Below, one piece after another: positions 3,537 to 61,707 of a DNA stretch of 64,000 bases. The position numbers and the translations under genes were made by a program. The stretch covers positions 89,819 through 153,818 of the forward strand of contig JADJXF010000018.1 in the NCBI GenBank assembly GCA_016715995.1, given 5' to 3'. Positions within the stretch are counted from its first letter, which is position 1. The number at the start of each line of letters is the position of its first letter. The notes below the pieces were generated by a model, which did no database searches, was not told where the DNA came from, and saw nothing but the letters and a program-made list of their open reading frames with translations. The stretch comes from Flavobacteriales bacterium (GTDB lineage: Bacteria; Bacteroidota; Bacteroidia; Flavobacteriales_F; PHOS-HE28).

Positions 3537-4580
3537 TCAGGTCCGTCCGATGCGTGCCATCCGCTGCCGAAGCCAATGATCGGCCAGCACCAGGCACGCC
3601 ATGGCTTCCACGATGGGCACGGCGCGTGGCACCACGCAGGGGTCGTGCCGGCCCTTCGCCTCCAGCATCACCTTCTCGCCGGTCTTGTTCAGCGTCTCTT
3701 GGGCCAGCGCGATGGTGGCGGGCGGCTTGAAGGCCACGTCGAAGAAGAGATCCGATCCATCGCTGATCCCGCCCGCCAGCCCGCCTTGCGAGAGCCGGTT
3801 GTGCGCTGAGCCGCGCAAGGCCGCCGCTGCGAAGCCGCTGCCGATCTGGAAGCCCTTCGATGCGTTGATGGAAAGCATGGCCTTCGCGAGGTCGGCGTCC
3901 AACTTATCGAAGACGGGCTCACCCAATCCTTCTGGAAGGCCGCGCACCACGCACGAGACCACCCCGCCGACGCTGTCGCCTTCTGCACGGGCCTGCTCGA
4001 TGATCGCTGCCATTCGTGCGCCGGTGTTCTCATCCGGGCATCGCACCGCGCTGCTCCATACGGGGGCTAGATCCGCCGGGATTCCACCTAGCGCCACTTC
4101 GCCCACGCGACTCACGTAGGCGTTCACCTGAACGCCATCACGCGTTAAGAGCTGACGCGCTATGGCGCCGCCCACCACGCAGGCCGCCGTGGTGCGCGCG
4201 CTGCTGCGTCCGCCGCCACGGTGGTCGCGCAGCCCATACTTCACTTCCCACGTCCGGTCGGCGTGTCCGGGGCGGTAAACGTCCTTCAGCGCGTCATAGT
4301 CGCTGCTTCGCGCATCGTTGTTGCGGATCAGGAAGCCCATGGGCGTGCCAAGTGCCCTACCCTCGAAGATGCCACTGAGCCACTCCACGCCATCGGCTTC
4401 GTTGCGCGCGGTGCCCAAGGGCGTGCTACCCGGCCGACGGCGATCCAACTCCATCTGCACGGCGTGCTGGTCAATCGGCAGGCCCGCAGGGCAACCATCC
4501 ACCACGCCACCAATGGCCGCGCCGTGGCTTTCGCCGAAGCTGGTGAGCCGGAAGAGCTGGCCGATGGTGTTGCCGGGCAT
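3537..4580 (-). CDS. aroC: chorismate synthase
   Basis: [34 protein letters not shown]...DRRRPG is the diagnostic AroC N-terminus. Full-length ~347 aa. Confidence 0.9.
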
Positions 4581-30974: not shown

Positions 30975-32575
30975 ATGGCAAAGCCGCGTCAATACACGGC
31001 CCTCGACCTCTTTTCAGGTTGTGGGGGCTTCAGTCTCGGACTCCAACGCGCAGGCATCAAGGTGCTTGGTGCTGTCGATTTCAACAAAGAGGCCATCGAA
31101 ACCTACCGGGCGAACTTCCCGGAAGTGCCTTTCGTGAAGGAAGCGGACATGAAAACCATGAAACCCGCAGACCTCGCCAAAGCTATCCACGCCAATCACG
31201 TCGATGTGATTGTTGGTGGGCCACCTTGCCAAGGGTTCAGCATGGCGCGACAACGCGATGGAGCGAACCACGGGCAGCGACGTTTCGTGAAGGATGAGCG
31301 CCGCGAACTATACCAGGAATTCCTACGGTTCGTGGACCACTTCCAGCCGAAGGTGTTCGTAATCGAGAATGTCCTTGGCATCAAGAGCGCGGAAGGCGGC
31401 AAGTATTTCACCGCCGTCCAGCACGAAGCGCGGAATTTGGGCAAGGAAGATGGCAGACCGGGCTACCGTGTGCATGCGCAAGTGGAGCAGGCATGGGAAC
31501 TCGGTGTGCCTCAGAAGCGCAGACGCCAACTCATCATCGGTGTTCGGGCTGACCTACCAGGATACTTCCCAACGAAGCTCTCAACGCCGAAGCGGTCCAT
31601 GAAGGATATGACCCTTGGTGCTGCGATCATGGATCGTCCTGTGTTGGAAGGTGGGCAAGTCGAAGAGGAACGCGAGTACGATCGCGCCTCCGGGAAAAGG
31701 CCATCAAGCAATTCGGCCGCCACGCTGAGAAATACCTCTACAATGTACTTGAGGTTAAGAGGGCCAAGAAGCTTACTGGACATCGTGCACGGAAGCATAG
31801 CGACCGTGACTTGCGGGACTTTGCCAAGTTGAAGGAGGGACAGAGTTCCGCCAACGCCATGCGAGCTGGCATCAAGTTCGAATTCCCGTACAGCACAGAG
31901 AGCTTCAAGGACCGCTACACCCGGCAGGATCGGAAGGCACTCTGTAGCACTATCGTCGCACACTTGAGCAAGGATGGACTGATGTTCATCCACCCAACGC
32001 AGAACCGCTCGTTGACCCCGCGTGAAGCCGCACGGGTGCAGAGCTTCCCGGATTGGTTCCAGTTCCCGTTCTCACGTACACATCAGTTCAGGATGATCGG
32101 CAACGCCGTACCGCCGCTGGTTTCTGAAGCCGTAGGGAATGAGGTGGTGAACTTCATTGCTGGTCAAACCTTGATTAAACGAACTCGCATGAACCGCACG
32201 ATACCACAAGACCAAGAGGAAGCCGTGAACTGGCTGCTACCTGTCCTTGACCTATCTGCCAAGGAGTTGAGCCAAATGGAGAAGGCGGAATTCCTGCGCG
32301 CATGGCGTGCGGTTGCTTTCCTCTACCCTGGCTTGCACCCCGATGGTGCGTTGGATCATGGAAAGCGCATCGAGCAACGGAGGGAAGGACCGAGTTGGGT
32401 GATGATGATCGAGCCCAGACTTGTCACACCGTACTTCAGCCAAAGCGGATGGCCTGTTGTGTTGAAATCACTCGCTAATGAGGCGTGGCGGAGGGACGAT
32501 GCTGGTCTGCTTGCTGACGACGAGTTGTACTCGATAGATGCGCAGCATGCCGGTATGACACACGCAATGAACTAG
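30975..32575 (+). CDS. dcm: DNA (cytosine-5)-methyltransferase (frameshift in A-run at 31694-31698)
   Basis: Motif I DLFSGCGGFSLG, motif IV GGPPCQGFS, motif VI ENV, and C-terminal QNRSLTPREAARVQSFPDWFQF / GNAVPPLV. The two halves are ORFs 30975-31832 and 31811-32575. gggaaaagg lacks one A relative to the in-frame reading. Confidence 0.85.
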
Positions 32576-32579
32576 GCAC

Positions 32580-35247
32580 ATGCAGGCTCCTCATTGGCAA
32601 TTCGCATCCACTGGGGGCGGCACCGAGGATGGGGTTTCCAATCCCGACCTTGAGTATTTCGAAGGGATTAGAACTACTATCTCGCTCGCGAGATCCTTCA
32701 GAACGCCCTCGATGCGCGGCTTGATGCAACGAAGCCGGTCCGTGTGGACTTCACCTTGCTCGAAATGCCGAAGTCACAGTTCCCTGGCTTCGATGAGTTC
32801 GTTGATGTCTGGAAAGCTGCCAAAGCCCTTTGGCCACAAAGCGAGGAGAAGTGTCACCAATTTCTTGATGCTGGTCTGCGTTGCTTGGAGCAGCCCAAGC
32901 TTCGCGTGCTCAAGATTTCGGACCACAACACAGTTGGCCTGAATGGCGACGATGGCGATCGGAGTGGTGCTTGGTTCTCCTTGGTAAAGTCAGTTGGGTC
33001 CACTACCAAAACTGGAGGACAGGGTGGATCATTCGGTATCGGGAAAGGAGCCCCATTCGCGGCTTCGATGCTTCGCACTTGCTTCTACTCCACGGTCAAC
33101 GAGCGTGGTCAAAACGTCTTCCAAGGCGTGGCCAAGCTGGTCAGCCACAAGAAGGACGACGACGTGAGGCGCGGTGAGGGGTCCTATGGTTTGGCGATGC
33201 AGTCCTCCATACGAAACAGGGAGCAAATGGAGGAAGCCATGGTGCGTAAGCAGCGTGGCTTGGACATATACGTGATGGGATACAAGGTTCAGGACGACTG
33301 GCAGGAAAAGCTCATTCGGTCTGTCCTGCGGAACTTCTGGCTGGCAATTCGTGACCAGGAACTCGTGGTCGTCATTGATGGTCAGGAAATTTCTGAAACA
33401 ACCGTTGACGAACTTCTGGCCAAGTACTTTCTGAACGAACCTTTCAAAGACGCTACTCGTCCCGAAGGGAATCCGCTGGAGTACTTCAAGGCATACAAGA
33501 ACGGTACGCCGTTCCACAAGGAGCTGCCGATACTTGGTCCTGTCAGGTTCTATTTCAATCTGACCGAGGAACCCTTGAATTGGGTCGCGATGATCCGGAA
33601 GCACAAGATGGTCATCTACACTCGCACATTCCACTTCCTTCACCATACGCCGGGGTGTTCATTTGTGACAATGCCGCTGGCAATGCAGAACTGAGACGGA
33701 TGGAAACACCGGCCCATGATAACTGGGACCCGGCAAGGCATAAGGAAAAGGGGCAGGCGATCGAGGAAGAGATCAGAGGCTTCATACGAGAGTGCTTACG
33801 CGCCATGACCAAGTCTCAAGAGGGAGGAAAGGTTGAGATCCCAGGACTCCATCGATACCTCCCGTTTGAGCATGAGGATGACGACACACAAACAGGCGGA
33901 ACAGCCATGGAGTATTCCGGAAGACCAGTTGCCGGACCAGAGGAAACCGCCCGTGAATTGGGTGCGGCAGAAAGCATCAATGAGACCGTCACGATAAGCC
34001 CTTATCGAGTTACGGTCTTAAATGAACGCAAAGCTGGGTTTGAAGGTGAGGGCGCAGAAACAGGGGGAAAGAAGACCAAGAAGAAGCGGAAGCCGCATCG
34101 CGGTGGCGAAGGCGAAAACGATGCGCTACTGAAAGAGCACCTGCACACCCGTGCATTCTGTATCGGCCAGTCATCCGATGTTCTCATTTACCAGCTCGTA
34201 GTGCGGAGCGGCATTGACGGACTTTGCAGCCTGAAGGTGAATGCTGTTGGTGAAGAGGGTGGCGAGAAGGTGGTCTTGAGGACCGCAGTAGATCGCAGCG
34301 GAAATCAATACAAGGTCAATGGACACCGCATCTTGAACATTCCGATCAGCAGTTCATCGGACCTCCAACTCAGCTTGGAGGTGGAAGGTCTGGACGGCTT
34401 GCACTCAGCATTGACGGCTATGCGCTACAACAATAGAGACTATCCCCATCCGGTTCTTGGTGTTGGCGATGCCGTTGCTGGTCATTTCAGCGTGCGGTTA
34501 GCCGTCCGCGCAGGTACCAAGGAGATTCGCTTAGAGCCGGTCTACGACCTTGGCAATCGCACACCAACGCATCCTGGCATTGAAGGCGGGCAGGCTCAGT
34601 TCGCAACTCACATCTATTGCAAGGGCACCATGTTCCGTGAAGTGCGGAAGTCGACCAAGGCCGTAGCGGAAACTATTGTACTTCCAGCCAGTGCGCTTCG
34701 CGACAAGGTGGAAGTGGACTTCTTCGTATGTGCGAACGCTCCGATCGCAGCCTACACGAATTCCGACGCGCATTCCGACTTCGTGGGGCACTCGTTCCCA
34801 GTTGAGCGAGGCGTGATTCTGGCATACGGCGGGCAAGGCGTCTTCTATGCGAACAAGACTCCTGAGGAACTGAAGGCGATCTCGTCCTTCATGAACATCG
34901 ATCGCGACCCACGACCTCACGGGCCTATGTACAACGCCTACGATGGGGACAAGATCACCGTGATGCTGTCCTCGAACGACTACCAGCGCTATCAGATCGT
35001 CAAGAGGGATCCGTACATCGTTGAGATCCTGCACAGCGCGATCGTTCTGCCCGCTTTGATGCAAGCCATTGCCGTAGTCCAAGAGGAGCCGTCAGAGTTT
35101 GCTGAGCACAAGTGGTTCGACATTCTCAAAGGACTAGTCGAGGAAACCAAAGAGGAAGATCCGATGAAGATCGCGCAGAAAATCTTGGAGAACCCGCTCA
35201 ACCGTTCCTTCAATGCTGTGACCAGCATGATGGAAACAGCAGATTGA
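32580..35247 (+). CDS. large (~890 aa) protein with N-terminal GHKL/Bergerat-fold ATPase domain (sacsin/MutL-like) and uncharacterised C-terminal region (two homopolymer frameshifts)
   Basis: N-box LAREILQNALDA, G1-like ISDHNTVGLNGDD, G2 GGQGGSFGIGKGAPFAAS. Pieces are ORFs 32580-32942, 32744-33694 and 33580-35247. Shifts at agaac (32669-32673, one A short) and ttcc (about 33645, one C short). Starts 5 nt after the dcm stop. Confidence 0.7.
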
Positions 35248-35251
35248 TGGC

Positions 35252-35995
35252 ATGAGCAGCACGGAGCAACCCATCGCTCTCCTAGAGCAGAAGATCCTAT
35301 CGACACGCACAGTCGACAGGATGTATCGGCAACTCAAGAACCTTCAGGATCACTCACAATACCTAGCTGGGTCATACGTCGGCGAGCTAGAGTTTCCGAA
35401 AGGGGGTTCCGGTATTGCGGCCGTCGAGGACCTCAAACTTGTTCCTCCAGACTCCAAAGACCTGCAAGACTTAGCCAATACCAAGCTCATCTATCACGCC
35501 TTTCAGAAGCTCACTCCGGCACAGGCGTCTGACAAGAGGCTGTGGACCTACCTGACGCATGTGACTTTCTGGGACTACATGAGAAAGCGATGGCCAGTAG
35601 ATGAGGCGGACAAGCCCATCAACAGGATAAGTGATCGCTACTTTCTCACTACGACAAGCTTGGAGTCGCTGACTAGGAATGGCATCTCGCGCTTGTGGTG
35701 GTATGGCTATTTAACGCACGACGCGAGTCGCAGCAATCCATGGGAGTTGACGGAGACACTTCTGTCGCGCGCGGATCTTGTGGTTGGCATTACAGAGCGC
35801 GCTGTCGGCAGCAATCAAACCTTGCGTACTGCTGTACTGGAGTTTCTTGCTGACAACCCGGAGATCAGTCTAAGTGAAAAGCTCACCCGTGAACTTCTCA
35901 AGAAGCTGAATCTTGTTGGGGGTACTCGCAATCTGCCCTTCCTGGATGTCGCAGAGTTGAAGGTGCTCTTAGCGAGTATTACCCCAACCTCTTAG
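35252..35995 (+). CDS. hypothetical 247-aa protein, translationally coupled to the GHKL gene
   Basis: Starts 5 nt after the 35247 stop. Trp/Tyr-rich motifs (KRLWTYLTHVTFWDYMRKRW, RLWWYGYLTHD). No family recognised. Confidence 0.6.
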   Translation: MSSTEQPIALLEQKILSTRTVDRMYRQLKNLQDHSQYLAGSYVGELEFPKGGSGIAAVEDLKLVPPDSKDLQDLANTKLIYHAFQKLTPAQASDKRLWTYLTHVTFWDYMRKRWPVDEADKPINRISDRYFLTTTSLESLTRNGISRLWWYGYLTHDASRSNPWELTETLLSRADLVVGITERAVGSNQTLRTAVLEFLADNPEISLSEKLTRELLKKLNLVGGTRNLPFLDVAELKVLLASITPTS

Positions 35996-36234
35996 CCATC
36001 ACTACTTCTTGGTTCTTCAGTAGGCTCTGCATTTCGCGTTAGGGACAGCAGCGGAAAAGCCCGGAGCGTTCTTAGGCGAGGACTTGTAGCGAATGGCCCG
36101 ACGGCGCGTCTTCGAACCGGAATAGCCAAACCACCGGCATTCCCCGAAGACACCGCCCCACCACCTAGAACATTGCTGCCGTAGGGTGCTCCAGAAAGCA
36201 ATACTTCTAATAGCCTTTCCCAGTGCCTCTTGCC

Positions 36235-36807
36235 CTAGTAGATAAGTATGCAAGTGTCAGCACCCCTTTGGGCGAAGCCAAGCTTGGATGGCGGACAGGC
36301 ATTTGACCCAGCAATCTCAAGCGGCCCAAGAACAAGATTCACCCAATCTACGCTCGCAAAACCTGGAGCAGGATTATGGTTAACCCAGACTCCTTTAACC
36401 TTCAATAGATTCGCCTCGATCGTATTCATTATCACCCCAACTCGATCCGGAGGTAACGCCCAATCCATTGGCCCCCATTTGCGGCGAAACTCAATGCGCC
36501 ATTTAGGTCTTCGCGCTCTTTCATCCGGAATCTTGACTAACCTGGGAGTGGCAAGCCATGGGCGAATCAAGCGGCCTTCAAGTGAGGTGCTTCTCAGCCT
36601 TTCGATCTCACGACCATTCCCACGTTCCACTCTACCATCATCGCGTACCTGTGCGGTTGAGGACTTGGAGGAAGCCAATACATTCTGGGTCCTCTCCTGA
36701 CGAGTCCGCGTTGTGTGTGGGAAAGCCTGTAGATCATCTGCGTGACATGACAAAAATCGCTCGGGATGGAAAACGGTCACGAGGCCAAGTACGATTGTCT
36801 CCATCAC
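36235..36807 (-). CDS. hypothetical protein (weak call)
   Basis: 190-aa ORF with protein-like composition (...KWRIEFRRKWGPMDWALPPDRVGVIMNTIEANLLKVKGVWV...). The plus-strand alternative is S/P/L/R-rich. No motif recognised, Vsr motifs absent. Confidence 0.35.
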   Translation of the reverse strand: MMETIVLGLVTVFHPERFLSCHADDLQAFPHTTRTRQERTQNVLASSKSSTAQVRDDGRVERGNGREIERLRSTSLEGRLIRPWLATPRLVKIPDERARRPKWRIEFRRKWGPMDWALPPDRVGVIMNTIEANLLKVKGVWVNHNPAPGFASVDWVNLVLGPLEIAGSNACPPSKLGFAQRGADTCILIY

Positions 36808-36816
36808 TCAGGCTAG

Positions 36817-37818
36817 TTACTTCCTATGAATGAAGCGAACACCCAATGATACCAAGAATACGCTCGTTAGAAGAATGCCAAGAAACGCCTCGAGTGCGGC
36901 CATAACATCACCCCAAGTTGTCAATGGGACAATCGTCCCGCCTCCCATAGTCGCAAAGGAAATGAAGCTCAAAGCAATCCCATGAACCAGGCTGTAAGAT
37001 TCGATTGAACTCACACAAACACCGAGTATAGGATAAACGATGATGCCAAAAACCAAGATTACGCCAAGCATCCAAAGCAGGGTGAGTTGTGGTCGAACTC
37101 CATAACCCCACAGGTGTCGATGGACATTCCAAAGCAAGTTGGCAATCGATGATTCTGAGCGTGCTCGTTGGGCACGGTGGAGATTGCGCATTTCTCGCAG
37201 ATACCATCGGTGAGCCGCGAAGTAGTTTGACCGGGCTTCGGCATTCTTCCCTAAGACCCTGTATACACTTGCGGCCCTTTCATGCTGACAGATGCACTCT
37301 TCACCAATCGACCCAATATGTACGCCTTCCCAATTAGTCTGTTCATCCATACGACAACCATAGAAGAAAGCTCCCTCTAGGCTAGATCCTTCTAAATCGA
37401 CCCCGGACAGGTCAGAAAACTCAAAATGCCCACCTACTGCTTGTGTGGCGGTGAAGATTGATCGACAAAGAACTGCGTTCGTAAGCACAGCTCCATTCAG
37501 TCTTGCAGAGCGACAATTCGCAAACTCAAAATTTGCACCCACCAACACCGTGCGCTCTAAGTTCGCACCCTCAAGGTCCGCAAGTGGCAGTTGTGCCCCG
37601 GTCAAATCGAGATCTGATAAATCACGTCCCGCCAAAGTCGCTCCCTCAAGCCATAAATCGGAGGACCGAATCGCTGCATTCAGGGCGTCACGAACGCGAT
37701 GGTTCCCCTCCGCGACAAAGTGGAATACACAATATTCTGTACTGCCCGCAGCAATCTCCCGCTCGCAGTAGTCGCGAGGACGACCTGTGTGCAGATACTT
37801 ATGCTTACAGACGGCCAT
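36817..37818 (-). CDS. pentapeptide-repeat protein fused to a C-terminal 2-TM pore-like (ion-channel-like) domain
   Basis: N-terminal 4-Cys cluster (CKHKYLHTGRPRDYCEREIAAGSTEYCVFH). Tandem A(D/N)LxxA pentapeptides (ADLEGANLERTVLVGANFEFANCRSARLNGAVLTNAVL...). C-terminal two hydrophobic helices flanking SFATMGGGTIVPLTTWGD. Confidence 0.7.
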   Translation of the reverse strand: MAVCKHKYLHTGRPRDYCEREIAAGSTEYCVFHFVAEGNHRVRDALNAAIRSSDLWLEGATLAGRDLSDLDLTGAQLPLADLEGANLERTVLVGANFEFANCRSARLNGAVLTNAVLCRSIFTATQAVGGHFEFSDLSGVDLEGSSLEGAFFYGCRMDEQTNWEGVHIGSIGEECICQHERAASVYRVLGKNAEARSNYFAAHRWYLREMRNLHRAQRARSESSIANLLWNVHRHLWGYGVRPQLTLLWMLGVILVFGIIVYPILGVCVSSIESYSLVHGIALSFISFATMGGGTIVPLTTWGDVMAALEAFLGILLTSVFLVSLGVRFIHRK

Positions 37819-38011
37819 CTATTCGAAAGAAAGAGTACTACAGCTAGTTCATTGGGTGTGCCGGCAATTCGCAGCGTGTCATTCACTGTTCACATATTCC
37901 TCCGATACTGCCCCCCTACCTCGTCCTTCGGCTGCCGCTCAGGACTCGCCGCCGTCAGCTGCCCCAGTGAGCAATACTATCGCCTCCATCAGCACCATTT
38001 TATCACGTTGC

Positions 38012-38344
38012 CTATGCCTTGGCGGCAGTTCTCCGCTCCATAGACTTCCGGCGCACTGGCCTGGCCAGCGGCTGGGGCATCTTGGGCAATTTCCCGGCGT
38101 ACAGCGTCTCGAAGCGGAAACACATCTCCCAGTCGTCCCAGTATACATCCACGTTGCGGTGCAACTTGAACTGCCGGAAGCGCAGCACATCCAGGTACTG
38201 GCTGTTCATGGGGTTCTGGCCCGCCGCGCTCAGGAACGGGTGGAAGTCGATCTCGCTCACATGCCCATCGGTGAACTGGAAGCGGATGGCATAATCACCC
38301 TTGTAGGTGGCCTTCTTGATCCGGACGTTATCTGCGATCCTCAT
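38012..38344 (-). CDS. DUF2442-family protein
   Basis: MRIADNVRIKKATYKGDYAIRFQFTDGHVSEIDFHPFL matches DUF2442. Confidence 0.65.
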   Translation of the reverse strand: MRIADNVRIKKATYKGDYAIRFQFTDGHVSEIDFHPFLSAAGQNPMNSQYLDVLRFRQFKLHRNVDVYWDDWEMCFRFETLYAGKLPKMPQPLARPVRRKSMERRTAAKA

Positions 38345-38646
38345 TTCACACGTCGGGTGATGCGCTCGGGCTTGATGCGCTTGTGTTCTACATAGAAGGC
38401 GGTCCATTTGGCAACGATGTCGCCTTTCATTGCCCGCACGAAGGACTCTGCTTCCCGTTGTTCCTTCTCGTTCAGCATAGCAGCTCCGCGCTTGGCACGC
38501 CAGCGCAATTCCACGAGCTTGCCTTCCACGATGATGAGCATGATGATGCCCTCGCGGTCGCCATGCTGCACATGGAGGTGCATAGGGTCATGGTCGTCGC
38601 TGTAGAACAGGAAGATGAGGCCGAAGTAATCGTACAGCTTGGGCAT
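38341..38646 (-). CDS. DUF4160-family protein
   Basis: MPKLYDYFGLIFLFYSDDHDPMHLHVQHGD matches the DUF4160 N-terminus. Stop overlaps the DUF2442 ATG (ATGA). Confidence 0.7.
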   Translation of the reverse strand: MPKLYDYFGLIFLFYSDDHDPMHLHVQHGDREGIIMLIIVEGKLVELRWRAKRGAAMLNEKEQREAESFVRAMKGDIVAKWTAFYVEHKRIKPERITRRVK

Positions 38647-38667
38647 TGGCCCAAAGGTAGCGACCGG

Positions 38668-39143
38668 TATGGCCTTACATGTTCCTTCTATACTGCCCAC
38701 CTACTTCAAACATCGCAGCAGTAAGCTGTCCAAGGCTACAGTACTTGGTCGCCTCCATCAGCACTGCGAACATGTTCTCGTTCTTGATCGCCGCTTCTTG
38801 CAATTTGCGCAACGCCGCCTTGGCTTCTTCGGCGTAGGCCTGCTGCACGTTCTCCACCGTCCTGATCTGCGCCTCCTTCTCTTCCTCCGTAGCGCGAATG
38901 ACCTCCTTCGGCAGGATCGTCGGTGAGCCTTTGCTGCTGAGGAAGGTGTTCACGCCGATGATCGGGTATTCACCGGTGTGCTTCAGCGTTTCGTAGTAAA
39001 GGCTTTCCTCCTGGATGCGGCTGCGCTGGTACATGGTCTCCATGGCGCCGAGCACACCGCCGCGTTCGGTGATGCGGTCGAACTCGGTGAGCACGGCCTC
39101 TTCCACCAGGTCGGTGAGCTCTTCGATGATGAAGGAGCCTTCG
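38668..39143. repeat. direct repeat copy 1 (icmF 3' end, ~470 bp, diverged)
   Basis: DNA alignment to 43666-44143 with scattered substitutions. Homology begins at ggctccttcatcatcgaagagctcacc. Confidence 0.7.
38675..39143 (-). pseudogene. diverged partial copy of the 3' end (last ~155 codons) of icmF
   Basis: Encodes ...[28 protein letters not shown]...[14 protein letters not shown], about 90% identical to the C-terminus of the intact gene at 43666-44143. Same stop context (ttacat(g/a)ttcc). No upstream gene body. Confidence 0.7.
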
Positions 39144-39157
39144 CGGGTTCACACCGA

Positions 39158-39880
39158 TTACACAGCCACAACTACTTCCCCAGTTTCGTTGATCACCAAC
39201 TGAGCCCCGGAATGTTCCCGAACCAACGACTGCCCATTGTAGAACGGCTCGATCGTTCTGAAGCGGTGTTGATACAATTCCTTGCCCTGACTGTCAATGT
39301 GGAACCAGCCCTTCTTGTCCAAAGCCGTTGCAATTCCCTTATGATAAGGCCCCAGTTCAAGGTAGCGGCCATCATTAACCGGCTGACCATCGGGGTCAAT
39401 GTGCATGAACAGTCCGTCCATGGTCTTTACACATGCAACGCCGTCTCGAAAGTCTCCGGCATACCGGAATTTATCCGAGTAGGCCGAAGTTCCATCGATT
39501 TGAATGTGATGATAGCTGCCATCGCTCGCCCTCACCGGACAACGGCCCTCTTGAAAGTTCCCACACCATGCGAACGACTGCGAACCCACCCGGCGACCTA
39601 GTGGGTCGATGTGGAACCAGTCGTCTCCAACCCACACTGCTGCTCGGTCGTTGTAATAGCCGAACGCTCGGTCATACCGTTCCGGATAAACTGGTTGGCC
39701 GTGTATATCGATGTGATACCAGCCCTCGTTACCTAGCACTGGGGCCAAGCCCGGTGCATGGAACTTCAGAACGCGACGGAAACGACCTTGCCACAGCGGC
39801 TGATCATGAAACAGGAAGCCCAGACCATCCTTTGCGACCCGGATCGTCCTCCACTCCATGGTTCTATTCTCATCAAGCAT
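39158..39880 (-). CDS. WG-repeat (KWG) protein
   Basis: Repeated G(W/Y)xHIDxxGxxV units (GWYHIDIHGQPV, DWFHIDPLGRRV, GSYHHIQIDGTS, GLFMHIDPDGQPV, GWFHIDSQGKEL). Confidence 0.7.
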   Translation of the reverse strand: MLDENRTMEWRTIRVAKDGLGFLFHDQPLWQGRFRRVLKFHAPGLAPVLGNEGWYHIDIHGQPVYPERYDRAFGYYNDRAAVWVGDDWFHIDPLGRRVGSQSFAWCGNFQEGRCPVRASDGSYHHIQIDGTSAYSDKFRYAGDFRDGVACVKTMDGLFMHIDPDGQPVNDGRYLELGPYHKGIATALDKKGWFHIDSQGKELYQHRFRTIEPFYNGQSLVREHSGAQLVINETGEVVVAV

Positions 39881-39930
39881 GTCAGGCCGGGTTCGTGATG
39901 ATCAATGACGTTCGTTCCTGAACCGTTCAA

Positions 39931-41376
39931 TTACAGATGACACATCCGGATCTTCAAGGCATTCACCTCCTCTTGAGATAGCCCGCAGTTCAACAGGTAC
40001 TGTTCCACGCCGCCCTCTTGCTCAATGATGTCCAACACTATTTGCAAGTTGTAGCCGTACGTATCCGACTCGCTAGCTAAGTAATCCGTCTGCACAGTTT
40101 CGTGGTCGGCTCCGGCGACTAGATGAAGCAATGTGACGATGATGCCCGTACGGTCCTTTCCTGCATGGCAGTGTATCAAAGCCCCCTTGCCGTTTGGCAC
40201 TTCAGCAAGTGCGCGAACTACAACAGAAATACTCTCACGACAAGCAAGCGCAAAGAAGCGATAGGCCACCTGCTGGTTACCCCCCCGCTGGTACTCCGCT
40301 GTTTTGAACCAATCCGGTTGACTCCATGGATCCAATGGAGCATGCACGTATCGGCCGATGGGCCATTTCTCCCGTGGATGGGGATGCTCTTCCAACTCCC
40401 GAGGCGCTCGAAGGTCAACGACCGTATGCACATCATGATCAGCCACCAATGTCGCAAGCATGTCCTCATTCATCAGCGCAGGTGCAGAAGAGCGCAAGAG
40501 ATTTGACCAACGGACCTTGGGGTTGTAGGTGCCGACGGCCCGCAGGTTCCAATATCGATCTCGCTCATAGATCTGTTCACAGGTCGCGCGAACATCGGCT
40601 AGCTTCTCGAAAGCGAGATCATCCAGTGTCTCGTACAACAGATCCAGCAATTCACGCTTCTTCCCATTCATTTCCGGCAGAAACATGGAGCCGCTCAACC
40701 GGTACAACCTTTCGCGGAATGTCCCATCAGTTATGTTCACCAAGAGATTTCTTGGAAGGAACTGGAAACGGTCCTGGGCGATTTTCATATTGAGCAACTG
40801 GACCACACAGTGCAGAGCGATCTGATAGAAGTAGAGGGCTCGATGGCCATCGCTTCTTCGATGGAACGTCGATGCATTGTCGAACTCGTAGATGAACTTG
40901 TCCACTAGGTCCTGGACCGTGCTCGGTCGGTATCCGATACCCAAGACGCCTTCAAGTCTACCAAGCAGGTGGCCCGACCTATCGATCAGAATGGCCTGCG
41001 GGAGAAGGTCACGAGGAATAGCAGACCCTGTCAAATCGCGCGAGAAGGACTCCATGCTCCGATGTATGGAGAACTCAGTCTTCAACCGCATGCCTTGAAA
41101 GAACGCCACCACCTTGTTCCGCATTTCAACCCGCATTACACGATCGGGTTTAGGCGATGCCTTCACCAAGGCGTTCGTCAGCGCTTCGCTACTGAACCTT
41201 TCATCGACGATCAGCGCAACATCGATATCAGAGTTCGGGGTTGCTTCCTGCCGAGCAACGGATCCATAGAGCACGGCAGCATCGATCCCAACAACTCCTT
41301 CGAGTATCGGCCGGAAACCATCAATGATCTGGTGATGCATCATGTTGTTGGTTTCCTCATGTTGCAGGTCATACAC
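39931..41376 (-). CDS. nucleotidyltransferase (Pol-beta/MNT-like) fused to C-terminal Cys-based tyrosine phosphatase domain
   Basis: N-terminus LYGSVARQEATPNSDIDVALIV (GS...DxD NTase motif). C-terminus IHCHAGKDRTGI (CX5R P-loop, Tyr_phosphatase_3-like). Confidence 0.7.
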   Translation of the reverse strand: MYDLQHEETNNMMHHQIIDGFRPILEGVVGIDAAVLYGSVARQEATPNSDIDVALIVDERFSSEALTNALVKASPKPDRVMRVEMRNKVVAFFQGMRLKTEFSIHRSMESFSRDLTGSAIPRDLLPQAILIDRSGHLLGRLEGVLGIGYRPSTVQDLVDKFIYEFDNASTFHRRSDGHRALYFYQIALHCVVQLLNMKIAQDRFQFLPRNLLVNITDGTFRERLYRLSGSMFLPEMNGKKRELLDLLYETLDDLAFEKLADVRATCEQIYERDRYWNLRAVGTYNPKVRWSNLLRSSAPALMNEDMLATLVADHDVHTVVDLRAPRELEEHPHPREKWPIGRYVHAPLDPWSQPDWFKTAEYQRGGNQQVAYRFFALACRESISVVVRALAEVPNGKGALIHCHAGKDRTGIIVTLLHLVAGADHETVQTDYLASESDTYGYNLQIVLDIIEQEGGVEQYLLNCGLSQEEVNALKIRMCHL

Positions 41377-41490
41377 AATGGCCTTGTCTTGTAATCCATC
41401 ACCAAGCTGCGGTAATTGGCTCCGTGCAGCGTCTCTTCAAGGCCGATCTCGTTCACATTCCCAAAATCACCTAGCGACTGCCTTTGTTCA

Positions 41491-42366
41491 TCAGGCGCAC
41501 AACACGGCGAGATCTTTACCCGTGGCCGATACCCACAACTCCTTGCCGAGGAAAGGGCAATCATAGTCCTCTGGCACTGCGTGCCCAACTACTGGCTTCA
41601 ATGGCTCGATGTTCTCCAGAAGAACAGGGCGGCCATCATGCCTCCTGAATTCATCTGCTGCGTCCCGTGCAGCTTCAACAATGCCGTTCCAATGCTCAAT
41701 GGCCTCTGGCGACGACTTGAAACTGAGTTCCTCGATCTCTTTGAAGTGTGCCCACAGGTGGTGACCCTTCACGCGGTCAACACCCAGGTCTGCTGCGAGG
41801 CGAATGATACCGGGTAGTTCGTGCATGTTGTTCTGCATGAACGTGAGTTGAAGGGTAACGCGGCAGTAATAGCCTGATCTCTTGAAGTGGTCATCCCTGA
41901 CCTTGACAAAGCGCCTGACGTTCTCCAACGCTTGCACGAACGTCAAACCCTTCATAATAGACTCCGCCGTTTCCTTGGTTGCACCATTCCATGAGATCTT
42001 CACGTCCGAGGTAACAGGAACGATGAGCGCCGCCCACTCCTCCACTGACTTCTTTGGGAAGGTGCCGTTGGTCGTTAGGTTGATCTTCATCCCCAACTCC
42101 GCTGCGAGCGCGAAGACTTCATCCATCTGACGGTAGAGCAGCGGTTCACCCATTGTCGAAGGGATGATCTCGCGGACACCCATGGCCTTCGCTTGCTCCA
42201 TGATGTCCCGAACCATGGTGAAGGGCATCCGCCTGCGTTTGACACCCGTGCGTTCGTAGAGTCGTTGGATGAAATCGCTGTGCTCACTGTGCTCTTCGCA
42301 CATGGTGCAACTCAGGTTGCAATCCTCTGGATTCGTGTCCAGTGTTATGCGCCACAACTTGCTCAT
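41491..42366 (-). CDS. radical SAM enzyme (small, no SPASM domain)
   Basis: CNLSCTMCEE (CxxxCxxC), SAM motifs STMGEPLL and NLTTNG. ATG overlaps the GT4 stop (ATGA). Confidence 0.75.
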   Translation of the reverse strand: MSKLWRITLDTNPEDCNLSCTMCEEHSEHSDFIQRLYERTGVKRRRMPFTMVRDIMEQAKAMGVREIIPSTMGEPLLYRQMDEVFALAAELGMKINLTTNGTFPKKSVEEWAALIVPVTSDVKISWNGATKETAESIMKGLTFVQALENVRRFVKVRDDHFKRSGYYCRVTLQLTFMQNNMHELPGIIRLAADLGVDRVKGHHLWAHFKEIEELSFKSSPEAIEHWNGIVEAARDAADEFRRHDGRPVLLENIEPLKPVVGHAVPEDYDCPFLGKELWVSATGKDLAVLCA

Positions 42367-43643
42367 GACCGGGCGATCAGTTGCGCATACACGTTCTCCA
42401 GGATCGCACAATGATCCAAGATGGAGGGAACTACGCCAGCTGTCGAGAACAGATAGCCTCGTCGTCCGAGCCGTTCCATTTCCTTGGGATGCATACAGGC
42501 CCAACGCATCTGCTCCCGAAGGTCTTCGATGGACCTATGCCTGAAGAGCAGCCCGTTGACCTGGTGTTGCACATATTCCGCCATGCCACCGGCATCAGCC
42601 GTGATCACAGGAATGCCGCATGCTTGTGCTTCGTGGATGACCAAGGGCGAGTTCTCCATCCAGATGGACGGTACCACGATGCAATCGACCCGGTTGAACA
42701 CTTCGTTGGCGAGGTTCTGGTTCACATATGCACCCATGAAGTGGATGCCCTTTCGAGAAGCACCCATGGCCTGAAGAGCGGCAGTGCTCTGCTGGTCCTT
42801 CGCGCCCCAGACGTAAAGTTCGGCAGCATCACCAAGTCCGTCAAACGCTTCGATGAGCTTGTTCACTCCTTTCGCCGGGATGTGCGTGCCGATATATCCA
42901 AATCGGAACTTGGGATAGGCATCGCGCTTCGTGGTCGCAACCAAGTAATCCGTGGGGAACCCGTAGTCGAGGTACATGACCTTGCTTGCTTCAACGCCGA
43001 ACTCATCAATGAAGCGTGTGCGCAAATACTTGGATGGCGCGATGAAGAGATCCACCGCAGACGCCAATCTGTGCATCTCATCCATTCTTGTCGCGACCCA
43101 TTTTGACCAGTAACCCTCTTCATCGTTTATCCTGCCATCGACACCAGACAATGCCGAAGAGTAGCAGGTCGTTGCGCACTTCCGATCCTCCTGCCCGTCG
43201 CACAGTTCATGCAATCGGCCTTGTCCGAAGTTCCGTTGAAGGAATTGGCCCCGCGGGCACATCAACCAGAAGTCGTGCAGCGTGAACACGATCGGAATTC
43301 CCGCCCTCTCCAGCACATCCACGATGCCTGTGGACAAGTGATTGAGGTGGCCGATATGTGCCACATCCGGCTTAAAGGATCGAACCAACTCTGCGAACCG
43401 AGCATCGAGTTCGGCATGGCGATAACCATCTTTCGCTCTGGGCATGTTCACCAGATGAACCGCAAGTCCCGGATGCACTTCAGTAATCCGGATGGTCATG
43501 TCTGGCGCGAAGGGGTTCTCCTCGCGTGAGAAGACAACCACCTCATGGCGATTGGAGAGTTCTTCGCAAATGGACTGGCTGTAAACCTCGGATCCTGCGC
43601 TGTACAGCGGCGGATAACCGTGTATGACCTTCAAGATCCGCAT
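42363..43643 (-). CDS. GT4-family glycosyltransferase
   Basis: GT-B fold, C-terminal EAQACGIPVITADAGGMAEYV (EX7E-like) motif. Confidence 0.8.
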   Translation of the reverse strand: MRILKVIHGYPPLYSAGSEVYSQSICEELSNRHEVVVFSREENPFAPDMTIRITEVHPGLAVHLVNMPRAKDGYRHAELDARFAELVRSFKPDVAHIGHLNHLSTGIVDVLERAGIPIVFTLHDFWLMCPRGQFLQRNFGQGRLHELCDGQEDRKCATTCYSSALSGVDGRINDEEGYWSKWVATRMDEMHRLASAVDLFIAPSKYLRTRFIDEFGVEASKVMYLDYGFPTDYLVATTKRDAYPKFRFGYIGTHIPAKGVNKLIEAFDGLGDAAELYVWGAKDQQSTAALQAMGASRKGIHFMGAYVNQNLANEVFNRVDCIVVPSIWMENSPLVIHEAQACGIPVITADAGGMAEYVQHQVNGLLFRHRSIEDLREQMRWACMHPKEMERLGRRGYLFSTAGVVPSILDHCAILENVYAQLIARS

Positions 43644-43665
43644 GTTCGCGCCGACCTCGAAGAGC

Positions 43666-44143
43666 TTACATATTCCTTCTGTACTGCCCACCTACCTCAA
43701 ACATCGCCGCCGTCAGCTGCCCTAGGCTGCAGTACTTCGTCGCCTCCATCAGCACGGCGAACATGTTCTCGTTCTTGATCGCCGCCTGTTGCAAATTCTT
43801 GATGGCGGTCGCCGCTTCATCGCTGTAGGCCTCACGCAGGTTCTCCACCGTCGCGATCTGGGCTTCCTTCTCCTCTTCCGTGGCACGGATCACCTCCTTG
43901 GGCAGGACAGTAGGTGAGCCCTTGCTGCTGAGGAAGGTGTTCACCCCGATGATCGGGTATTCGCCGGTATGCTTCAGCGTTTCATAGTAGAGGCTTTCCT
44001 CCTGGATGCGGCTGCGCTGGTACATGGTCTCCATGGCGCCGAGCACGCCGCCGCGTTCGGTGATGCGGTCGAACTCGGTGAGCACGGCCTCTTCCACCAG
44101 GTCGGTGAGCTCCTCGATGATGAAGGAGCCTTGCAGCGGGTTC
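43666..44143. repeat. direct repeat copy 2 (in-gene 3' end of icmF)
   Basis: See copy 1. Confidence 0.7.
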
Positions 44144-47100
44144 TCGTTCTTGGCCAAGCCGAGCTCCTTGTTGATGATGAGCTGGATGGCCATGGCGCGG
44201 CGCACGCTTTCCTCGGTGGGCGTGGTGATAGCCTCGTCGTAGGCGTTCGTGTGGAGGCTGTTCGTATTGTCGTAGATGGCGTAGAGCGCCTGCAACGTGG
44301 TGCGGATGTCGTTGAAGTCGATCTCCTGCGCGTGGAGGCTGCGGCCGCTGGTCTGGATGTGGTACTTGAGCATCTGGCTGCGCTCGTCGGCGCCGTAGCG
44401 GTGCTTGAGCGCCTTGGCCCAGAGGCGGCGCGCCACGCGGCCCATCACGGCGTATTCGGGGTCCATGCCGTTGCTGAAGAAGAAGCTCAGGTTGGGCGCG
44501 AAGGCGTTGATGTCCATGCCCCGGCTGGAGGTAGTACTCCACGTAGGTGAAGCCGTTGGCCAGCGTGAACGCGAGCTGCGAAATGGGGTTGGCGCCGGCC
44601 TCCGCGATGTGGTAGCCGCTGATGCTGACGCTGTAGAAGTTGCGGACCTTCTGCTCGATGAAGTACTGCTGCACATCCCCCATCAAACGCAGCGCGAACT
44701 CAGTGCTGAAGATGCAGGTGTTCTGTGCCTGGTCTTCCTTCAGGATGTCGGCCTGGACGGTGCCGCGGACCTGGGCGAGGGTGTCGGCTTTGATCTTGGC
44801 GTAGACGTCGGGCGGGAGGACCTGATCGCCGGTGATGCCGAGCAGAAGCAAGCCTAGACCGTCATTCCCTTTCGGAACCTCACCATGATACTTCGGGCGC
44901 TGGCTGCTGGCTGTTGGCTGCTGGCCTTTGGCTGCTGGCTGCTGGCCGCTGGCTACTGGCTGCTGGCTCGCTTGCGGATTGGAGCCAGTAGCCAGTGGCC
45001 TGTGGCCAGCAGCTTCCCAACGCTCCTTGACCTTCTTTTCAACCTCTGCTTCCAATCCGTTCTCCCGGATGTATTTCTCGCAGTTCTGATCGATCGCCGC
45101 GTTCATGAAGAAGCCCAACAACATGGGCGCCGGACCGTTGATGGTCATGCTGACGCTTGTGGTGGGCGAGGTGAGGTCGAAGCCGCTGTAGAGTTTCTTG
45201 GCATCGTCGAGGCAGCAGATGCTTACGCCGCTGTTGCCCACCTTGCCGTAGATGTCCGGACGACGACCGGGATCGTGGCCATAGAGCGTGACGCTGTCGA
45301 ACGCAGTGCTGAGGCGCTTGGCGGGCAGGCCTTGGCTCACGTAGTGGAAGCGCTTGTTGGTGCGCTCCGGTCCACCCTCGCCGGCGAACATGCGCGCGGG
45401 ATCCTCGCCGGTGCGTTTGAAGGGATAGATGCCTGCGGTGTAAGGGAAGAAGCCGGGCGTGTTCTCCTGCATGGCCCAGCGCACCTTGTCGCCCCAACTG
45501 CGGAACTTCGGCAGCGCCACCTTCGGGATCTTCAGGTGACTGAGGCTCTCGGTGTGGTTGGGCACCTTGATCTCCTTGCCGCGCACGAGGTAGGTGTAGA
45601 ACTCGCCGCCGTACTTCTCCTCTTCGGCCTTCCAGCCGCTGATCATGGACCAGAGGTGCGGATCCAGGTCCTTGCGTAGCTCGTTGAACTTGGTGATCAG
45701 TGTTTGGACTTCAGGTGTTGAGGTGAATGGTGAATGGGAGCTGGTGACTGGCGAACCCGCATCCACGGCATTTCTCCATTCGCCATTCACCAACGACCAT
45801 TCACCCGCAAGCATATCGGGTCCTCCGAAGGTGATGACAGCAGAGTGCAGCCCATACAGTTGATCAGCAATGTTCGCCTGGGCATCCACCCGGGAATCGT
45901 AGCGGCGATTGTTCTCGCTGATCTCGCTCAAGTATCTGCTCTTCGCAGGAGGGATGATCCACACCTTCTCGCTCATCTCGTCGTGCGCGTGGAAAGTGCT
46001 GTGGAAGTCGACGCCCGTCTTGGACTTGATGGTCTCCATCAACCGCACATACAGGTTGTTGGTGCCGGGATCGTTGAACTGGCTGGCGATGGTGCCAACA
46101 ACAGGCAGCTTGTCATCGTCCGCATCCCAGAGCTGGTGATTGCGCTTGTACTGCTTCTTCACATCGCGCACCGCGTCTTGCGCGCCGCGCTTGTCGAACT
46201 TGTTGATCGCCACCACATCGGCGAAGTCAAGCATGTCGATCTTCTCCAATTGCGTGGCCGCGCCGAACTCCGGCGTCATGATGTAGAGCGAAACGTCGCT
46301 GTGATCGAGGATCTCCGTATCGCTCTGGCCGATGCCGCTCGTCTCGAGGATGATCAGGTCGAAGCCCGCGGCCTTCAGAATCTCCACGGCTTCCTTCACG
46401 TGCTTGCTCAGCGCGAGGTTGCTCTGGCGCGTGGCGAGTGAACGCATGTATACGCGTTCGCCGCGGATGCTGTTCATGCGGATGCGGTCGCCCAGCAGCG
46501 CGCCGCCGGTCTTGCGCTTGCTCGGGTCCACGCTGATGACGCCGACCGTTAAACCTTGTCCTTCCGGGCCTGACCCGGAATGATCGAGGATGAAACGGCG
46601 GATCAACTCGTCCACCATGCTGCTCTTGCCAGCACCGCCAGTGCCTGTGATGCCCAGCACCGGCGCCTTGCTCGCTTCGGCCTTCTTATGGATCTCGTCG
46701 GCGATGGTGGCGAAGACCTCCGGATGGTTCTCCGCCGTGCTGATCAGCTTGGCGATGGCCGGCCAGTTCTGCGGGCTCAGCTTCTTCGCCTCGCCGTTCA
46801 GCTTGTCGCTCAGGTCGAAGTCGGCCTTCTCGAGCATGTCGTTGATCATGCCCTGTAGGCCCATCGCACGACCATCATCCGGGTGGTACAAGCGCGTGAT
46901 CCCGTACGCGTGCAGCTCCTTGATCTCCTCGGGAAGGATCGTCCCTCCTCCCCCGCCGAAGATCTTGATGTGCCCTGCGCCCTTTTCCTTCAGCAGGTCG
47001 TGCATGTACTTGAAGTACTCGTTGTGCCCGCCTTGGTAGCTCGTCATGGCGATGGCGTGCGCATCCTCCTGGATCGCGGTGTTCACCACGTCCTCCACAC

Positions 47101-47257
47101 TGCGGTCGTGCCCTAAGTGGATCACCTCGGCGCCGGTGCTCTGGATTATGCGCCGCATGATGTTGATCGCGGCATCGTGGCCGTCGAAGAGGGAAGCAGC
47201 GGTGACGACGCGGATCTTGTTCTTGGGGACGTAGGGCGGGGCGGAGACGAAGGACAT
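43666..47257 (-). CDS. icmF: fused isobutyryl-CoA mutase (B12-binding domain, MeaB-like GTPase, mutase catalytic domain), one frameshift near 44525
   Basis: B12 domain (...[18 protein letters not shown]...), P-loop [17 protein letters not shown], mutase core [35 protein letters not shown]. The true C-terminus is in ORF 43666-44676. The 1175-aa ORF's last ~180 aa are an out-of-frame artefact. Extra C in ctcc at about 44527. Confidence 0.85.
44885..44960. repeat. short tandem repeat (gctgctggc-type units) encoding a Gln/Pro/Ala-rich inter-domain linker of IcmF
   Basis: ggctgctggctgttggctgctggcctttggctgctggctgctggccgctggctactggctgctggc encodes ...[26 protein letters not shown].... Confidence 0.4.
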
Positions 47258-57069: not shown

Positions 57070-57302
57070 CGTGCGACCGGCATAGCGCCGACAAAGCCAG
57101 CGGTGCCCGCAATGGGATTGTGCAATGGCCCTTGTAGCGCAATGCCCATCCGCAGCTTGGCCACTGGGCGCGGATTCCCTTCGGCGCGGCACCGCTGACA
57201 TGCCCGTCTCATGAATAGTCCCGACCTTCAGGCATCCAAATCCGGAAGGGGCGTCTGCCGAGTGGCAGGGTGCCCGCCCTGTCACCACCGGACCAGGACC
57301 AT

Positions 57303-59522: not shown

Positions 59523-59526
59523 TTCC

Positions 59527-61701: not shown

Positions 61702-61707
61702 CCTGCC

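Follow-up and report, generated by a model that had tools for sequence, protein, structure and literature searches.

The subject of this analysis is the gene icmF and the DNA behind it in a 64,000-nt stretch from a Flavobacteriales bacterium (assembly GCA_016715995.1, contig JADJXF010000018.1, positions 89,819 to 153,818 of the forward strand), which is called the window, or W, and to whose positions all coordinates refer. icmF codes for a fused isobutyryl-CoA mutase and lies, like the array described here, on the minus strand. It was found that four co-oriented copies of the icmF tail, the first of which is the working end of the gene, bound three tightly packed, co-oriented blocks of low GC content, and that arrays of this kind recur behind icmF in close relatives. 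On balance we favour the explanation that the locus is an additive cassette hotspot at the icmF stop codon, where recombination occurs within the tail of the gene and is probably driven by homology, with occasional illegitimate joins. Such an anatomy calls for serial recombination within the tail of icmF, in which the incoming DNA brings a tail of its own. A search of the literature gave no description of arrays anchored on icmF.

The repeated unit, R, is the terminal unit of icmF and consists of its last 28 or so codons and the stop codon, usually the last 84-94 nt. Tail copies in the window were searched for by tblastn with the IcmF tail and by nhmmer with a DNA profile of the ~90-nt unit R. 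Domains were assigned with Pfam in 47 open reading frames (ORFs), which are nearly all of those of at least 150 aa; about 13 ORFs had no Pfam match and five were left unscanned. Defence genes were annotated with PADLOC and RNA families with Rfam, and the phage and plasmid sets used were IMG/VR, INPHARED and PLSDB. For relatives, 80 Bacteroidota icmF loci were compared, among them L001 (CADEDY01) and L002 (JANNYL01), and further contigs (L081-L097) were reached through protein look-ups or a pattern scan.

Anatomy of the array

In the direction of icmF the order is icmF-R0, block A (four genes), long copy 1, block B, R2, block C and R3, made up as follows.

43666..47257, minus strand: icmF, fused isobutyryl-CoA mutase (B12 domain, MeaB GTPase, mutase), with the start placed at about 47257 by alignment with L001
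43665..43766, minus strand: R0, terminal repeat unit at the working icmF end, inside copy 2 (nhmmer E 3.9e-27)
39158..43643, minus strand: block A, four-gene operon (Pfam matches)
42363-43643, minus strand: GT4 glycosyltransferase, block A
41491-42366, minus strand: radical SAM protein, block A
39931-41376, minus strand: nucleotidyltransferase-tyrosine phosphatase (NTase-PTP) fusion, block A
39158-39880, minus strand: WG-repeat protein, block A
39134..39157, minus strand: junction of block A and copy 1, in which ~16 nt of post-operon spacer run into icmF codon ~1123
38675..39150, minus strand: copy 1 (R1, the long form), a displaced tail of icmF that begins at codon ~1123 and runs to the stop codon with its frame intact (tblastn E 4e-94)
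38012..38646, minus strand: block B, two-gene cassette of DUF4160 (38341-38646) and DUF2442 (38012-38344) (Pfam, translation)
37889..37997, minus strand: copy 3 (R2), short tail repeat with a 2-nt deletion and an insertion of ~18-22 nt (nhmmer E 1.5e-20, tblastn E 3e-6)
36235..37818, minus strand: block C, pentapeptide-repeat/ion-channel protein (36817-37818) and a 190-aa protein of unassigned function (36235-36807) (Pfam)
36136..36231, minus strand: copy 4 (R3), which closes the array and is its most degenerate tail (nhmmer E 5.5e-16; tblastn weak, E 0.07)
36031..36107, plus strand: Flavo-1-like repeat, which marks the ancestral icmF-downstream sequence and with it the far end of the array (Rfam RF01705, 25.7 bits)

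The R profile matched the four tails with E values from 4e-27 to 6e-16, and the tblastn matches of copies 3 and 4 span 37893-37976 and 36138-36206, respectively. Every gene of blocks A, B and C has the orientation of icmF and together they fill the space between the tails; the first cassette gene begins 22 nt beyond the TAA stop codon of R0, and the ORFs of block C occupy the interval between copies 3 and 4. The DUF4160 and DUF2442 genes of block B are like a toxin-antitoxin pair. Decay of the tails rises with distance from icmF both in W and in L001. The low GC content that the preliminary description of this stretch had noted between the two copies known to it and to their left was confirmed, in that GC is 0.51-0.58 across 30.9-43.7 kb and 0.62 in the backbone, and the tetranucleotide distance to the backbone is 0.35-0.40 there compared to 0.11-0.23 in control stretches. 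This composition marks the blocks as accessory, which we count in favour of a hotspot.

At the far edge, a three-way alignment showed that the sequence after copy 4 is the same as that after the sole tail of L084 and after the last tail of L002. Because this L084-type sequence, with its Flavo-1-like element, follows the last tail in W and L002, the array sits as an insert between the stop codon of icmF and the sequence that adjoined it ancestrally. RF01705 scores 25.7 bits in W and 34.5 bits in L084 and in neither case reaches the gathering score of 42. The element is at 36031-36107 (plus) in W, at 1088-1171 (minus) in L084 and at about 3590-3720 (plus) in L092, and its orientation relative to icmF differs by genome. 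It has been reported in transcriptome work that Flavo-1 matches occur in either orientation and are often untranscribed (PMC9723704), a pattern more in keeping with a DNA repeat that is dispersed than with a gene for an RNA.

The working end of icmF and the long displaced copy

The name icmF could suggest type VI secretion, a reading that was rejected, as the protein is a fused isobutyryl-CoA mutase/MeaB GTPase. Once reconstructed, the protein shares 88-97% identity with the IcmF proteins of relatives. Over the C-terminal 286 residues its identity to Bacteroidota homologues, which their sources name methylmalonyl/isobutyryl-CoA mutase, is 82-97%, and a plasmid match is annotated as 'fused isobutyryl-CoA mutase/GTPase IcmF'. 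An apparent 1-nt insertion, an extra C near 44527 (44520-44530, minus strand) where W has CTCCAGCCGG and seven relatives have CTCAGCCGG, shifts the icmF frame 286 codons before the stop, upstream of copy 2. Either the extra base is an error of sequencing or the gene on which the array is anchored has truly been inactivated; assembly indels are suspected because several other genes of the window (dcm, PDC-M33A and FTCD) are split as well. The apparent frameshifts in these genes are at 10838-10994 in the formiminotransferase-cyclodeaminase gene (FTCD), at 31811-31832 in the cytosine methylase gene and at 33580-33694 in PDC-M33A; in L082 and L083 the calls for icmF and for a copper-ATPase gene are likewise fragmented. 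The interdomain linker of IcmF carries a stretch of low complexity (44885-45015) that is rich in Gln, Pro and Ala and is encoded by short tandem and inverted repeats (GCTGCTGGCTG units). L001 and L002 lack this stretch or have a different one, and chance matches to Rfam miRNA models arise from it.

When 36-47 kb were searched with a repeat finder, a single direct-repeat family was obtained, 38661-38960 against 43652-43951, and alignment extended the homology to ~476 nt. The duplicated tail is therefore real, as had been described, with copy 1 at 38675-39150 (tblastn E 4e-94 with the IcmF tail) and copy 2 at 43666-44142 (minus strand). The two copies are co-oriented, their starts are 4991 nt apart, and 54 differences over the last 462 nt give an identity of 88% (about 90% in the preliminary description). 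It was also confirmed that copy 2 is the genuine 3' end of icmF and that copy 1, which spans the last 154-158 codons, has no gene body upstream. By segment, the identity of the two copies is 96% for aa 1127-1198, 78% for aa 1199-1252 and 88% for the last 28 codons. In the conserved segments all 18 differences (8 + 10) are at third codon positions, as are 10 of the 11 changes private to copy 1, and therefore both copies evolved within working genes and copy 1 was displaced recently. The variable segment of copy 1 is closest to that of the array-free L082 (88%; 90.8% over 477 nt overall), and the variable segment of copy 2 is at most 82% identical to anything compared. Thus, in W, copy 1 is L082-like and the variable part of copy 2 is foreign, and the earlier view of a replacement end in copy 2 and a displaced older end in copy 1, whose frame is intact, was upheld. 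A diversity-generating retroelement was also considered and rejected, as no reverse transcriptase domain is present in the ORFs scanned and the differences are third-codon-position changes of all kinds and not changes at adenines.

The junction of block A with copy 1 carries the octamer GAACCCGC at 39143-39150, which is shared by both partners and is found in the real gene at 44135-44142. The W spacer TCGGTGTGAACCCGCG is homologous to TCGGCATGAAACCGGA, the sequence that follows the block A operon in L087, L088, L090 and L092. This has the mark of an illegitimate join at 8 nt of microhomology and not of an att site.

Arrays and cassettes in relatives

Among the 80 Bacteroidota icmF loci, extra tail copies were found only in the two closest, L001 (97% protein identity) and L002 (94%). 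L001 has the real end and three further R copies (four tails, three cassettes), and L002 has the real end and eight further R copies within 5.7 kb (nine tails, at least eight cassettes). Among the further contigs, L085 has the order icmF-R0-(DUF2281+PIN)-R1 followed by a long copy from aa 1141; L087 has a DUF5122 cassette and block A in addition to two long copies; a single cassette is present in each of L096 and L097; and L081, the sole extra contig obtained from a metagenome pattern scan for a 2-nt-deletion variant of the tail, is an array fragment. In L083 an 8-kb defence island is followed by an icmF remnant of aa 1183-1223, and in L086 there is a displaced copy of more than 1 kb into which an inverted-repeat element of 190 nt is inserted. 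L082 and L084 each have just one tail. In L084 it is followed by the Flavo-1-like element, so that the empty-site comparison proposed in the preliminary description could be made, and L084 looks like an empty site. The defence islands behind icmF in L083 (10882-18976) and L084 (1223-5904), which are not cassette arrays, carry BglII and BsuBI/PstI restriction-modification genes, an S24 peptidase, SAVED/HNH genes and an OLD-family nuclease. Because such relatives hold defence islands there, the site downstream of icmF is a general hotspot for accessory genes.

About 13 independent cassettes were found, all of them co-oriented, and the ORF maps of W, L001, L002, L085, L096 and L097 show arrays of cassettes with one or a few genes. 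Their ORFs start 3-72 nt past a tail and stop just before or inside the next one, and some of them terminate at the TGA within GCTGATGG of that tail. From this packing the cassettes are apparently promoterless; in a scan for sigma-70 promoters and terminators, the model for which is wrong for Bacteroidota, the counts did not exceed the shuffle expectation. The contents are two toxin-antitoxin-like pairs, small membrane proteins, lipoprotein-like proteins and proteins tagged for the type IX secretion system (T9SS), and unknowns. Cassettes are shared between genomes: the DUF4160/DUF2442 cassette is at position 2 in W, at position 3 in L002 (83% identity) and in part in L081, and the DUF2281/PIN cassette is at position 1 in L085 and at position 2 in L001 (86% identity).

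The gene content of block A given in the preliminary description (WG-repeat, NTase-PTP, radical SAM and GT4 genes) was confirmed by Pfam. Block A is a conserved operon that is found, with 89-92% identity, directly after icmF in L088, L089 and L091 and after a 224-nt tail copy in L087. What comes after the operon in L087, L088, L090 and L092 is the Flavo-1-like element, oppositely oriented, and there is no distal tail copy. The genomes that carry it have differing icmF variable segments upstream of it, and what they have in common there is only the last ~25 nt and the TAA. The operon is conserved across L087-L095, its GT4 being of the 'conflict system' type and its radical SAM protein a radical SAM-SPASM. 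The NTase-PTP family is large in Bacteroidota, with 495 proteins at E<1e-10, and in more distant relatives the NTase-PTP gene stands alongside kinase-like, methyltransferase and zeta-toxin genes. PADLOC gave weak viperin-like and PDC matches in block A. The operon may be a module for conflict or defence. An exact look-up of the window WG-repeat protein gave no match.

Edges and variants of the tails and the direction of replacement

The right edge of R is sharp, at the stop codon and a few bases. The left edges are mostly 84-94 nt before the stop (fuzzy, 76-104), with others at ~200, 224, ~394, at least 420, 473 and more than 1000 nt before it. Within R the 13-mer GACGGCGGCGATG is nearly invariant, and insertions are tolerated on either side of it. 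Several tail variants recur: the 2-nt deletion (GCGAT--AGTATTGCTC) is common to W copy 3, L081 and five of the L002 copies, three L002 copies have a hairpin insertion of 20 nt in common, and an insertion after GGCGATG is found in L096 (68 nt) and in part in W copy 3, where it resembles the start of the L096 insertion. Because these variants recur across cassettes and genomes, the tails are not merely fresh local duplicates. Displaced tails also carry small palindromic insertions, namely CCCGGCTCGCAGGCCGGG, CCGCCGTACGGCGG, CCTGCCTGCCGGCAGGCAGG, the 68-nt insert and the 190-nt element with GGGTACCAC inverted ends, at L002 4920-4940, 6190-6210 and 7455-7475, L085 ~1955-1975, L087 ~110-130, L086 1967-2160, and L096 1470-1540 and 2050-2120; these may be miniature mobile elements or repair footprints.

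The direction of replacement can be read in L085. The distal half of its working tail is 84% identical to that of the array-free L082 and 82% to the working end of L001, and it is 86% identical to the L001 tail that lies upstream of the same DUF2281/PIN cassette; the distinctive ending ..CAGTACCG.CGCAACATGTGAACAGGCT is common to these last two. The displaced tail of L085 is 96-98% identical to the type found in L082 and at the L001 working end. Thus, in L085, the working end is the cassette-linked variant and the displaced copy is the ancestral one.

How the array may have been built

A probable explanation is that in this lineage of Flavobacteriales the position directly behind icmF takes up new modules time and again, and that each incoming module would bear its own copy of R, usually the last 84-94 nt of the gene. 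Recombination within R would keep icmF whole and push the prior tail and all that lies behind it one step downstream, and W would record at least three such steps, with block A the newest, then B and then C. The engine would act in trans; homologous recombination by the host, acting between R copies on circular or linear DNA that comes in, is judged most likely, and occasional illegitimate joins mediated by microhomology could give the long copies. In the case of copy 1, an array segment that starts inside the icmF of another genome (codon ~1123) may have been joined to the block A spacer at GAACCCGC, or the reverse. The cassettes would be expressed by read-through from icmF, which is suggested because they are co-oriented with icmF and packed end to end.

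Homology together with illegitimate joins is favoured by the fuzzy or long left edges, by the microhomology, by the fact that no recombinase was found in W or among the called genes of L082-L097, and by the lack of a dyad or hairpin in R, and it is ranked somewhat higher than a dedicated recombinase. A number of points weigh against it. The tails differ by 10-25% with identical runs of only ~13-15 nt, and homologous recombination between such tails should be inefficient. The single target gene end, the sharp right edge, the mode of 84-94 nt and the uniform polarity would be expected rather of a site-specific system that is dedicated to the task. The tails are mosaic and their left half is ~92% conserved in all comparisons, which blurs the point of crossover within R, and no circular intermediate, donor or enzyme was observed. 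In addition, the junction of block A and copy 1 was seen in the W assembly only, the window assembly appears to be indel-prone, with icmF, dcm, PDC-M33A and FTCD split, and small indels in tails may be errors, and the sample, drawn from a single narrow clade, amounts to about a dozen metagenomic contigs, most of them short.

Other explanations for the array

Those same features point to the alternative of dedicated cassette capture, in which a site-specific recombinase encoded in trans would use the icmF tail as both the chromosomal and the cassette site, circular promoterless cassettes would be inserted and excised as in integrons or in the staphylococcal cassette chromosome (SCC), and the long copies would be side products. 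We regard this as possible, though doubtful. It would account for the one specific target, the sharp right boundary and the preferred unit of 84-94 nt, for the ~13 co-oriented, tightly packed cassettes with toxin-antitoxin cassettes among them as in chromosomal integrons, for the reshuffling of cassettes between genomes, for the continued propagation of frameshifted tail variants, and for the near-invariant 13-mer with insertions tolerated either side. The enzyme it calls for was not met with in any locus looked at: among the 47 ORFs of the 64-kb window there is no recombinase, resolvase or transposase domain in Pfam, in agreement with the preliminary description, which had detected no integrase, recombinase or transposase; and there is no recombinase among the called genes of L082-L097. 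Nor does R look like the site of such an enzyme. DNA folds of both strands of four repeat copies gave no attC-like hairpin (z -0.1 to -1.3), the R consensus folds with -3.5 kcal/mol, without real covariation, and there is no dyad or inverted-repeat core, R being conserved in sequence. The variable left edges, the long copies that begin at scattered codons and the microhomology junction also speak against it. A bolder form, which we put forward as a tentative and rather unlikely idea, is that this is an undescribed gene-capture platform of Flavobacteriales in which a trans recombinase would use the last ~90 bp of icmF as docking site and cassette tag, so that integron-like promoterless arrays would be read through from icmF with neither an IntI-type integrase nor attC hairpins. 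Rfam found no known structured RNA in the repeats; its only matches were the sub-threshold Flavo-1 outside them and the chance miRNA matches in the linker.

The explanation first offered for the duplicated tail was a single element of the e14/icd kind, with its own integrase and a fixed core in icmF, that lost the integrase and left copy 2 as the element-borne end and copy 1 as the displaced one. A duplicated gene end does flank low-GC cargo in W, and copy 1 looks native and the distal part of copy 2 foreign, as that model would have it. What makes it highly improbable is that there are four tails and three blocks and not one element, that the 5' edge of the duplication is not conserved among relatives and the junction is one of microhomology, and that block A is a plain four-gene operon that stands behind icmF in relatives with no distal tail copy. 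No trace of an integrase, excisionase or phage gene was found in block A with Pfam and PADLOC, blocks B and C are likewise free of integrase and excisionase genes, and no phage, viral contig or plasmid with the icmF tail as attachment site was found in IMG/VR, INPHARED and PLSDB. The single decayed element is thus not borne out, and the suggestion that the region is a composite of several events holds in spirit for the four tails and three blocks; the dcm/GHKL region that it was meant to take in is a separate island beyond the array. It had also been said that related genomes with the same copies around unrelated DNA would speak for an ancient duplication. Such relatives were found, and we read them as recurrent insertion at a hotspot and not as one ancient duplication.

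It is improbable, too, that W is an assembly chimera of two strains, one with icmF and block A and the other with icmF and cassettes B and C, and that the long duplication exists in no cell. The several split genes suggest an error-prone assembly, and the exact junction of block A and copy 1 was not seen elsewhere, both halves occurring separately in other samples. The join, however, is at an 8-nt microhomology and not inside a long shared repeat where assemblers switch paths, analogous long copies are present in the independent short-read assemblies of L085, L087 (two), L086 and L083, and the short tail arrays do not depend on this junction. The explanation to which we give least credence is duplication of the target as in CRISPR arrays, in which cuts at both ends of the tail would duplicate it at each insertion of a cassette that has no tail of its own. 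In L097 the displaced tail does share lineage-specific features of its own gene end in both halves, new units adjoin the gene, and in W and L001 the decay is greater in the distal tails. But frameshifted or insertion-bearing tails recur with different cassettes and in different genomes (five in L002, W, L081, L096), and this explanation is disfavoured because copying of only the intact first tail cannot yield recurring variant tails; moreover, the working tail of L085 is the cassette-linked variant.

Neighbouring regions of the window

Beyond the last tail copy and the ancestral downstream sequence there is a separate convergent island (30.9-36.0 kb).

30975..35995, plus strand: split cytosine-5 DNA methylase gene and candidate defence system PDC-M33 A/B/C (PADLOC, Pfam)

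The PADLOC matches to PDC-M33 have E values of 1e-82 for A, which is split by a frameshift, 3e-53 for B and 6e-56 for C. Pfam finds DNA_methylase and DUF6339 in the island, PDC-M33 C being the DUF6339 protein. At the other end of the window (57270-63983, plus strand) three or four tandem paralogous genes code for T9SS-secreted surface proteins (SprB repeat, DUF11, DUF7619, Por_Secre_tail), and these are the source of the other large repeat families of the window.

Comparison with known systems

Integron-like arrays are held to depend on an integron integrase and on attC sites that form hairpins, and additive islands on elements that bring an integrase to tRNA genes. Here the last codons of a housekeeping gene are the repeated boundary in a stack of cassettes in several uncultured Flavobacteriales, with no recombinase found nearby. 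If a dedicated enzyme is at work, this would be a new system of gene capture, and one in a phylum in which integrons are seldom found. If the recombination machinery of the host is enough, a short gene-end repeat could seed a self-perpetuating insertion hotspot, and this would also explain the mosaic C-terminal region of IcmF among close relatives. In practice, scattered tail copies of a conserved gene are a simple signature by which hotspots can be searched for.

The array resembles several known families and lacks defining features of each. It is similar to chromosomal integrons and to clusters of attC sites lacking integron integrases (CALINs) in its small, co-oriented, tightly packed and apparently promoterless cassettes, its ~90-nt repeats, its toxin-antitoxin cassettes, the sharing of cassettes between genomes at differing positions and its array-specific repeat variants. 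Unlike in integrons, there is no adjacent IntI, the repeats are the last codons of a coding gene, conserved in sequence and with no attC fold, and the place of attI as anchor is taken by the 3' end of a metabolic gene. A canonical integron was therefore rejected, as there is no integrase in the ORFs scanned and no attC-like fold. As with e14 at icd and SGI1 at trmE, an incoming replacement end keeps the gene intact and an older partial end is left downstream; what differs is that here there is no integrase or excisionase, the events are nested, the cargo is tiny, the edges of the duplication are not fixed and one junction is a microhomology join.

In Prochlorococcus, tycheposons form additive islands by serial integration next to tRNA genes (bioRxiv 10.1101/2020.12.28.424599). 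The likeness is that newcomers are proximal to the gene, older modules are pushed inward and partial target copies are scattered, whereas here the target is a protein gene and the window has no tRNA or tmRNA, no intact integrase-bearing elements or integrase fragments were seen in about 15 loci, most of them short contigs, and the cargo is uniformly oriented and of cassette size. In staphylococci, SCC composite islands are found at the 3' end of rlmH (orfX), and some of their modules lack ccr (PMC9430635). These share with the icmF array the tandem modules behind a gene whose frame is preserved, the direct repeats of the target end and modules without a recombinase that are served in trans; SCC repeats, however, are 15-30 bp with ccr serine recombinases in at least one module, compared to 85-476 bp and no such recombinase found here.

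Homology-facilitated illegitimate recombination, reportedly described by de Vries and Wackernagel in 2002, is said to combine a one-sided homologous anchor with a microhomology join. The junction of block A and copy 1, a single case in which the donor-type spacer is kept, and the scattered starts of the long copies are like this process, which alone leaves the unit of 84-94 nt, the uniform polarity and the reshuffling of cassettes unexplained. Finally, in the orphan arrays of rhs and cdiA, displaced 3' ends (toxin tips and immunity genes) lie behind the main gene and are preceded by fragments of its conserved part. There too displaced 3' ends accumulate behind the main gene, unlike here, where the repeat is the true end of the gene and the cargo is unrelated to it.

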